From the IMG/VR virus record IMGVR_UViG_2534681649_000007: 6,192 nt of DNA, one strand, 5' to 3'. The position numbers and the translations under genes are program-made. Numbering within the stretch: the first letter of the stretch is position 1; each line of letters opens with the position of its first letter. This DNA is from a virus. Taxonomy: Duplodnaviria; Heunggongvirae; Uroviricota; Caudoviricetes. Below are positions 930 through 1,240 of this stretch, in pieces. Under the pieces are notes generated by a model. That model was not told the DNA's origin. It made no database searches and worked only from the letters and a program-made list of their open reading frames with translations.

Positions 930-1004
930 TGGAGCGGGCAGCGGGAATCGAACCCGCATCATCAGCTTGGAAGGCTGAGGTAATAGCCATTATACGATGC
1001 CCGC
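930..1004 (-). tRNA. tRNA-Gly (anticodon UCC)
   Basis: Minus-strand sequence GCGGGCATCGTATAATGGCTATTACCTCAGCCTTCCAAGCTGATGATGCGGGTTCGATTCCCGCTGCCCGCTCCA. Acceptor stem GCGGGCA/TGCCCGC, anticodon loop CTTCCAA, T-arm GCGGG-TTCGATT-CCCGC, encoded CCA. Resembles E. coli glyT from memory. Confidence 0.9.
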
Positions 1005-1007
1005 ATA

Positions 1008-1083
1008 TGGTGCCGACTACCGGAATCGAACTGGTGACCTACTGATTACAAGTCAGTTGCTCTGCCTGCTGAGCTAAGTCGGC
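1008..1083 (-). tRNA. tRNA-Thr (anticodon UGU)
   Basis: Minus-strand sequence GCCGACTTAGCTCAGCAGGCAGAGCAACTGACTTGTAATCAGTAGGTCACCAGTTCGATTCCGGTAGTCGGCACCA. Acceptor GCCGACT/AGTCGGC, anticodon loop CTTGTAA, encoded CCA. Resembles E. coli thrU from memory. Confidence 0.9.
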
Positions 1084-1085
1084 GC

Positions 1086-1162
1086 TGGCCCACCACCGAG
1101 GACTCGAACCTCGCACCGTCAACTTAGAAGGTTGATGCTCTATCCGGATGAGCTAGTGGTGG
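1086..1162 (-). tRNA. tRNA-Arg (anticodon UCU; decodes rare AGA/AGG)
   Basis: Minus-strand sequence CCACCACTAGCTCATCCGGATAGAGCATCAACCTTCTAAGTTGACGGTGCGAGGTTCGAGTCCTCGGTGGTGGGCCA. Acceptor CCACCAC/GTGGTGG with unusual C1:G72, anticodon stem TCAAC/GTTGA, loop CTTCTAA, T-arm CGAGG-TTCGAGT-CCTCG, encoded CCA. Confidence 0.8.
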
Positions 1163-1163
1163 T

Positions 1164-1240
1164 TGGTGGCCCTTGCTGGACTTGAACCAGCGACCTGGCG
1201 ATTATGAGTCGCTCGCTCTGACCAACTGAGCTAAAGGGCC
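1164..1240 (-). tRNA. tRNA with CAT anticodon, ileX-like (likely tRNA-Ile2 lysidine type reading AUA; elongator Met not excluded)
   Basis: Minus-strand sequence GGCCCTTTAGCTCAGTTGGTCAGAGCGAGCGACTCATAATCGCCAGGTCGCTGGTTCAAGTCCAGCAAGGGCCACCA. Anticodon loop CTCATAA. Acceptor and T-arm closely resemble E. coli ileX as recalled. Confidence 0.8.

Follow-up and report, generated by a model that had tools for sequence, protein, structure and literature searches.

A four-tRNA module of the lambdoid late-region type, kept in a dead prophage remnant, matches codons over-used by related prophages and Shigella invasion genes

Clusters of tRNA genes between the antiterminator gene Q and the lysis genes have long been described in lambdoid and Shiga toxin (Stx) phages. 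They were reported downstream of Q in SfI, Sf6, ST64T, and phage 21, and in SfI, where ACA stands at 17.3% versus 7.1% in the host, codon supplementation was given as the rationale for the Thr(UGU) tRNA (PMC3636060). In phage 933W, described here from its GenBank annotation (AF125520), the slot holds ileZ-argN-argO; full-text literature searches for ileZ, argN, and argO returned no match. We analysed four tRNA genes at positions 930-1240 of the IMG/VR virus record IMGVR_UViG_2534681649_000007, a stretch of 6,192 nucleotides (nt) that we call the window. The cluster is of this already known kind, and the exact block is annotated in RefSeq and present in phage collections. With a probability of about 0.7, we read it as a lambdoid late-region tRNA module that has stayed intact in a prophage remnant shredded by insertion sequences (IS), and that would add decoding capacity for codons over-used by phage and virulence genes.

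ARAGORN called four tRNA genes in the window and no more; each lies on the minus strand. From 5' to 3', they are a CAU-anticodon tRNA of the ileX/ileZ type (tRNA-Ile2, a predicted lysidine-modified AUA reader; 1164-1240, Rfam 70.5 bits), a tRNA-Arg(UCU) on a body of the phage argN family (1086-1162, 56.4 bits), a tRNA-Thr(UGU) that is a copy of thrU with U16C and U20C (1008-1083, 69.8 bits), and a tRNA-Gly(UCC) equal to glyT (930-1004, 64.9 bits). Spacers of only 1, 2, and 3 nt separate them, and the 3' CCA is encoded in all four. Scores of 56.4 to 70.5 bits against Rfam RF00005, for which the gathering score is 29, with E-values of 1e-10 to 2e-14, place the four calls far above chance. The two programs thus agree on the outer coordinates given in the initial annotation of this DNA, which had not stated the strand. 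Over 400-1420, an Rfam search run at a permissive threshold added nothing to the tRNAs except look-alikes of tRNA on the antisense strand and terminator-like hits below the threshold.

In FDAARGOS_944, FDAARGOS_943, CFSAN029787, KE51, and PhiR47_1, an identical or related cluster occupies the stretch from the Q-antiterminator region to a class II holin gene, and the copy in CFSAN029787, an enteroinvasive Escherichia coli (EIEC) strain, is 100% identical over 361 nt. In the window, the genes are found directly upstream of the holin gene, whose start at 637 is 293 nt downstream of the cluster, but no longer downstream of Q and pR'. We attribute the loss of the Q side to a later deletion, since intact relatives with an identical cluster have both neighbours in place. 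The initial annotation had assigned the cluster to the slot in which Stx phages carry ileZ-argN-argO, upstream of the holin, and this assignment holds: intact relatives show the order Q-cluster-holin, and the promoter and the first two genes are homologous to those of 933W.

The products of the Ile2, Arg-UCU, Thr-UGU, and Gly-UCC genes would raise the capacity for reading AUA, AGA/AGG, ACA(/ACG), and GGA(/GGG), respectively. Codon use was compared between 13,901 codons of three intact relatives and 14,748 codons of E. coli K-12 core genes, and the 59 synonymous codons were ranked by relative use. The core genes use the target codons least within each family: ATA accounts for 4% of Ile codons, AGA and AGG together for 3% of Arg, ACA for 10% of Thr, and GGA for 8% of Gly. 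In the three relatives, they are enriched 2- to 7-fold and take nearly all the top ranks of over-use (AGA 1, AGG 2, ATA 3, GGA 4, ACA 6), while ranks 5 and 7 fall to CGG and CGA, the codons of the sister tRNA argN(UCG) of 933W. The five most over-used codons of the ipa-mxi-spa region of S. flexneri pCP301 (9,721 codons, 34% GC) are again AGA, AGG, ATA, ACA, and GGA, and ATA and AGA are 14-fold commoner there than in the core genes.

These figures modify a distinction drawn in the initial annotation, which had set two decoders of rare codons apart from two housekeeping-like tRNAs. The Ile2 and Arg tRNAs do read rare codons, but the contrast is misleading, since ACA and GGA are likewise the least used Thr and Gly codons of the core genes and are over-used in phage. 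The Thr and Gly genes share the logic of the Ile and Arg genes, and the anticodon set as a whole matches the codons over-used in related prophages and in Shigella invasion genes. In K-12, thrU, glyT, and argU are single-copy genes, ileX/ileY is present in two copies, and the products are of low abundance. Each extra phage copy should therefore matter.

Inspection of the sequence upstream of the first tRNA gene revealed a predicted sigma-70-type promoter, TTGCA-N17-TATTAT (1250-1279, minus strand), with TTGCA as the -35 and TATTAT as the -10 hexamer, which was found by a promoter scan and ends 9 nt before that gene. The homologous site of 933W is annotated in GenBank as 'pT; putative tRNA promoter'. 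Across six aligned loci, 933W among them, neither hexamer varies, in contrast to the spacer between them. When 48 distinct upstream sequences, drawn from 124 viral clusters, are compared, the hexamers are again the best-conserved stretches, with the majority base reaching at least 60% at most positions and at least 90% at two. The cluster thus has its own predicted promoter, homologous to pT of 933W. Upstream of it lies a predicted intrinsic terminator, a hairpin followed by a U-tract (1328-1358, minus strand; -20.2 kcal/mol, z = -4.8), which a simple terminator scan missed and folding revealed. Its counterparts are the terminators annotated in 933W between pR' and the tRNAs. It is kept in FDAARGOS_943 and FDAARGOS_944, and the PhiR47_1 version has a different stem. 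With these signals, the module looks transcriptionally self-sufficient.

Expression of the cluster can be pictured as follows. The pT promoter would make one short precursor containing all four tRNAs, RNase P would cut each 5' end, and exonucleases would trim the 1 to 3 extra 3' nucleotides; with spacers this short, and judging from the way E. coli processes polycistronic tRNA precursors, separation of the tRNAs would have to rely on these two activities. Host TilS would turn C34 of the CAU tRNA into lysidine, leading to charging with Ile and reading of AUA. In an intact phage growing lytically, Q-modified polymerase coming from pR' would in addition transcribe the cluster and continue into the holin gene. 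In the window, only the cluster's own promoter can drive the tRNAs, because Q and pR' are gone. Any benefit of the cluster to fitness is one that we infer.

The assignment of the CAU gene rests on its acceptor stem as well as on overall similarity. It is 96% identical to ileZ of 933W and 90% identical to ileX of K-12, versus 69% to metT/metU. It carries C4:G69 and C5:G68 (GGCCC...GGGCC) as ileX does, whereas metT has U4:A69 and A5:U68, and these two C:G pairs are major identity elements for E. coli TilS (PMC11947777). Identical copies are labelled tRNA-Ile in RefSeq. ARAGORN reported the gene as Met because it reads the unmodified anticodon alone. We conclude that it is a tRNA-Ile2 of the ileX/ileZ type, with a predicted lysidine at position 34.

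The second gene has the pair C1:G72, the discriminator G73, and A20, C35, and U36. Since E. coli arginyl-tRNA synthetase recognizes A20, C35, and U36/G36 as identity elements, those for arginine are present. The closest sequence is argN of 933W (79% identity), followed by host argU (73%) and argO of 933W (60%). All features of the argN family are found in the gene: C1:G72, the CTCATC D-arm, the GGTTCGAGTCC T-arm, a body of 77 nt, and a place in slot 2 after an ileZ-type gene. When IMG/VR was scanned with the T-arm of the family, 116 tRNAs were recovered, with the anticodons TCG (50), TTT (44), TCT (14), and TAT (2). The window allele, which 12 of the copies match exactly, has G73, in contrast to the majority of members, which have U73. 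The first acceptor pair had been singled out in the initial annotation as unusual. C1:G72 is indeed there, but it is not peculiar to this gene, being the norm in the family (111 of the 116) and odd only by comparison with host Arg tRNAs.

Three further observations concern this slot. The tRNA-Arg(UCU) of phage T5 (16774-16848), otherwise unrelated in sequence, also combines C1:G72 with G73, and this single observation points to a possible importance of the first pair in phage Arg tRNAs. In the commonest sister cluster, slot 2 is filled by a tRNA with a UUU anticodon on an argN-type body (44 IMG/VR copies; positions 12446-12522 of related locus L002 and 6447-6523 of L010). Its anticodon loop reads CCUUUAA, with C33 in place of the near-universal U33, and it has U73 and keeps A20. 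This 'tRNA-Lys' of the relatives was considered as an anticodon point mutant of the window gene, an idea that we rejected, as it is a distinct argN-family allele of 85% identity. Slot 2 also receives odd or non-standard anticodon calls in some IMG/VR clusters, such as '???(ag)', Phe(aaa), Leu(taa), and Ile(tat), which suggests that the anticodon loop of the slot-2 tRNA is unusually variable.

The third and fourth genes were aligned to their chromosomal counterparts. The Thr gene is identical to K-12 thrU at 74 of 76 positions, with U16C and U20C in the D-loop as the only differences and the anticodon arm unchanged, and the Gly gene is identical to K-12 glyT over all 75 positions. The two lie 3 nt apart in the window, versus 209 nt in K-12, where 8 nt, tyrU, and 116 nt intervene. 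The initial annotation was therefore accurate in describing a near-thrU and a near-glyT gene joined without tyrU between them, and among chromosomal and phage tRNAs the closest relatives of the four genes are glyT, thrU, ileZ/ileX, and argN. Both C16 and C20 are present in all 14 IMG/VR clusters of the window type, and an exact 62-mer of this Thr allele turned up in S. flexneri SFBU1023 and 'E. coli' ECMA0423 but in no other of 185,579 species-representative genomes.

The likeness to thrU and glyT ends exactly at the boundaries of the mature tRNAs, and no trace of flank, chromosomal spacer, tyrU, or thrT was seen. Because the identity is limited to the mature sequences, a simple recent capture of a chromosomal thrU-glyT segment is unsupported, and we rejected it. 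Strong constraint on, or conversion of, the mature Thr and Gly sequences only is a likelier account of the pattern. In FDAARGOS_943, the gene annotated as 'tRNA-Val' (L009, 6290-6364) is a decaying glyT-like copy that carries C35A and A38G and has lost 1 nt from its 3' acceptor strand. A single-base anticodon switch, also considered for this gene, was rejected in view of that damage.

Cluster types in an IMG/VR sample indicate how the four genes came together. Thr-Gly alone was found 44 times, CAU-Arg(UCG)-Arg(UCU) 43 times, CAU-Lys(UUU)-Thr-Gly 37 times, and the window type, CAU-Arg(UCU)-Thr-Gly, 14 times. The cluster can therefore be seen as a mosaic of two modules, one of the pT-ileZ-argN type and one of thrU'-glyT', as the initial annotation had surmised: in viral contigs, the Thr-Gly pair also stands alone and the CAU gene with its argN-type partner is also joined to argO. 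Among the viral Gly copies, the compensatory changes C6U:G66A and G5U:C67A were found, which argue for selection for a working tRNA.

A query of 361 nt, at a coverage of at least 80%, detected the cluster in 601 of 5,426 complete E. coli genomes, a count that takes in both the window type and the CAU-Lys(UUU)-Thr-Gly type. Ten records were at least 99% identical, and several of the closest matches came from strains with virF-bearing plasmids, that is, EIEC. Six Shigella-type chromosomes with the window's YdaT protein were examined, and each retains the four genes despite differing IS rearrangements; three of them hold the cluster on a 777-bp island flanked by IS1 and IS911. Three full copies at different loci are present in S. 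flexneri SFBU1023 (L209, L211, and L212) and in 'E. coli' ECMA0423 (L210, L213, and L214); ARAGORN finds a shortened Thr gene of 74 nt in one copy of each genome. The module thus outlives the prophage, intact with its promoter on IS-flanked islands and multi-copy in S. flexneri, and it is a candidate tuner of virulence-gene translation.

Several points weigh against codon supplementation. The codon match is correlative, because any acquired DNA richer in AT is enriched in A-rich rare codons, and so few phage genes survive in the window that a demand for AUA, ACA, or GGA cannot be read from them. Retention in several genomes could reflect shared descent and not selection. The decayed glyT copy of FDAARGOS_943 indicates that the module is not always maintained. 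Finally, evasion of tRNA nucleases has been argued to be a main reason why phages carry tRNAs (PMC12445682).

The remaining sequence of the window is that of a prophage reduced to fragments, with four IS insertions in 6.2 kb. Homology to intact prophages spans 640-1369. Directly downstream of the tRNAs, 640-929 (minus strand) is a structured non-coding spacer with three long hairpins (minimum free energy -88.3 kcal/mol, z = -3.9). None of 200 shuffles of these 290 nt folded as stably, and the spacer is 95% conserved in phages vB_EcoS-689R5, vB_EcoM-606R7, and PhiR47_1; it matched no Rfam family. It leads to a class II holin gene of the P21 S type (446-637, minus strand; PF04971, E = 1.8e-33) that lacks its last 8 codons. 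The remaining product is identical at 63 of 63 residues to the first 63 of the 71 amino acids of the intact holin, after which an IS600 cuts the tail. This element (1-448, minus strand), identified by RefSeq names, a BLAST block, and its direct repeat at 4984-6149, forms the left edge of the phage fragment.

On the other side, an IS911 (1370-3393, minus strand; Pfam IS3-family domains) replaces the Q side. It begins where homology to intact prophages ends, at 1369, and 129 nt upstream of the first tRNA gene. An IS1 (1522-2289, plus strand) splits it, as judged from inverted repeats at 1522-1544 and 2267-2289 and from the InsA/InsB domains in Pfam. IS911 is unbroken in three related chromosomes, its halves are contiguous in locus L014, and a 9-bp overlap corresponds to the target duplication of IS1. 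Beyond IS911 lie parts of an immunity region, comprising a YdaT-like gene (3467-3889, minus strand; PF06254), a Cro-like gene (3873-4100, minus strand; PF14549), and a gene for a cI-like helix-turn-helix repressor (4177-4584, plus strand; PF01381/PF07022). A second IS600 (4984-6149, minus strand; BLAST, repeat, and Pfam evidence), a direct repeat of the first, closes the bracket around the remnant, and the direct orientation of the pair invites deletion or movement of the enclosed 4.5 kb. A further IS1 end starts at 6150 (6150-6192).

About 9.4 kb that separate the tRNAs from ydaT in an intact relative (L001) are missing here, and Q, replication, morphogenesis, and the other lysis genes are absent from the window. 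The window is 99.92% identical to chromosome CP026731.1, where the remnant adjoins ybhA-modABC-gal, a neighbourhood that we take to be the lambda attachment region. An exact 47-nt probe over the junction between prophage and IS911 had no match in the GTDB representative genomes. The cluster is therefore prophage-borne, as the phage flanks and the same block in phage genomes attest and as the initial annotation had stated, but the prophage itself is dead, an IS-cut remnant of a Shigella/EIEC-type chromosome.

Such surroundings raise the question of whether the tRNA genes are themselves inert, the undecayed leftovers of a dead prophage with no present contribution. The loss of phage genes, the truncated holin gene, and the four IS elements are in keeping with such a relic, tRNA genes being short targets that may by chance survive longer than open reading frames, and the Gly copy has indeed decayed in a relative. 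What speaks against it is, first, that the tRNA genes, their promoter, and the terminator upstream all remain undamaged and equal those of inducible or intact phages; second, that the cluster is retained in six differently rearranged chromosomes and occurs three times in a single S. flexneri genome; and third, that the compensatory stem changes in relatives indicate purifying selection on the family. We regard an inert relic as possible but disfavoured.

A second alternative is counter-defence, in which phage tRNAs replace host tRNAs cut by anticodon-arm nucleases of rival elements and the C16/C20 Thr tRNA would serve as a cleavage-resistant isodecoder. U16C and U20C are, after all, the only changes relative to host thrU, and the allele is the chromosomal thrU of no species representative. 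With regard to the PARIS system, U16C in E. coli tRNA-Lys 'significantly impaired AriB cleavage' (PMC12409363), T5 tRNA-Lys has C16, and the Lys(UUU) allele of the relatives lacks the AriB site (G39-U40-U41). However, the effect of U16C is known only for tRNA-Lys, and the T5 tRNA-Thr that rescues from PARIS has U16, with position 39 changed instead. We thus rejected C16 as a feature common to PARIS-resistant tRNAs. Drift moreover accounts for both changes, since few positions of tRNAs are under less constraint than 16 and 20.

With regard to the P2 Old nuclease, which blocks lambda by cutting the anticodon stem of the thrU tRNA, phage Thr(UGU) tRNAs rescue infection (PMC12445682). Here the relatives are more suggestive than the window: some of their thrU-like tRNAs, that of FDAARGOS_943 (L009, 6368-6443) included, combine G42U/C with U43C, a change seen on three or more different sequence backgrounds. 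The altered dinucleotide leaves an anticodon stem of 3 bp and removes C40-A41-G42, a CNG motif, in agreement with the published rule that resistance to Old needs an altered CNG motif and a shortened stem together; over-expressed host thrU gave little or no protection (PMC12445682). The window Thr tRNA has the anticodon arm of thrU, with the AriB site U36AAUC|A41 and the paired CNG motifs intact. Since it keeps both cleavage sites and the full stem, it should be sensitive to Old. The Gly copy is 100% identical to the host gene, and among the thrU-like copies of viruses 64% do not differ from thrU at all. No nuclease is known to target Gly or Ile2 tRNAs. Counter-defence is accordingly an improbable explanation of the window cluster, ranked well below codon supplementation.

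A broader proposal gives counter-defence a part only. The C16/C20 Thr tRNA would escape AriB, the sister alleles changed at 42-43 would escape Old, and slot 2 would be a re-targetable C1:G72 scaffold (UCG, UCU, UUU, or UAU) giving nuclease-proof replacements. The cluster would then be kept in Shigella and EIEC, in up to three copies, as it also boosts translation of AT-rich virulence genes. We consider this unlikely. The coincidence of thrU-derived variation with positions tied to the PARIS and P2 Old nucleases nevertheless offers a handle on the tRNAs of temperate phages as anti-defence tools.

The initial annotation had also suggested that the tRNA genes could serve as integration targets. 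Such genes might act as attB sites for other elements, or might provide matching sequence through which the tufB operon could recombine with the cluster. Although tRNA genes in general are frequent attachment sites of phages, and the identity with glyT and thrU is perfect or near-perfect over 75-76 nt, the window contains no integrase gene beside the cluster or elsewhere and no duplicated 3' fragment or partial direct repeat of a tRNA. Across about 20 related loci, annotated or scanned with ARAGORN, no insertion in or beside the tRNAs was seen except IS elements. We therefore rejected the attachment-site idea and consider a role in integration or recombination very improbable. An ordinary chromosomal tRNA operon, a paralogue of the tufB operon not derived from phage, is refuted despite its Gly and Thr sequences being those of glyT and thrU, as tyrU, thrT, and tufB are absent, the homology ends with the mature tRNAs, and everything that flanks the cluster (holin gene, terminator, promoter, and immunity region) is of phage type; the same block is also found in sequenced phage genomes.

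Codon supplementation by a phage-borne module is thus the reading under which we compare the locus with known systems. The chromosomal thrU-tyrU-glyT-thrT-tufB operon of K-12 resembles it in the mature Gly tRNA, which is the same, and in a mature Thr tRNA differing at two positions. The window cluster differs in having no tyrU, thrT, tufB, or flanking homology, and its promoter is different. The tRNA-Lys, -Thr, and -Asn genes of T5 that act against PARIS, and the phage Thr(UGU) tRNAs that act against P2 Old, share the UGU anticodon target with the window, and T5 tRNA-Lys also shares C16. In the window, in contrast, the anticodon arm is unchanged, and no published resistance change is found at 28-30 or 39-43.

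Closer in position are the lambdoid phages of Shigella, Salmonella, and E. coli: SfI, Sf6, ST64T, and phage 21 carry a Thr(UGU) gene in the same place, but they have only Asn(GUU) and/or Thr(UGU), the likeness being taken from their published description (PMC3636060). The slot between Q and the holin is reused across genera, since the Yersinia lambdoid phage YeP1 holds a different set there (L012, 2883-3184), consisting of a Gln-UUG-like gene annotated as a pseudogene, a CAU gene, and a Gly-UCC gene. The CAU-Lys(UUU)-Thr-Gly clusters of PhiR47_1, vB_EcoS-689R5, vB_EcoM-606R7, and many E. coli prophages agree with the window in architecture, flanks, holin, and spacer, with DNA 93-95% identical. 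They differ in the UUU allele of slot 2 (85% identical, C33, U73), in a Thr gene equal to thrU (U16, U20), and in a CAU gene of the 76-nt ileZ form.

Phage 933W provides the comparison for the first half of the cluster. Its argN has the anticodon UCG and U73, whereas the second tRNA of the window has UCU and G73; argO follows there, whereas the window has the thrU-like and glyT-like genes instead and no stx downstream; and its spacers measure 9-13 nt, versus 1-3 nt. The two loci nevertheless share the slot after Q/pR' and the terminators and before the lysis genes, a homologous pT promoter, a first tRNA of 96% identity, and a second tRNA drawn from the same C1:G72 family (79%).

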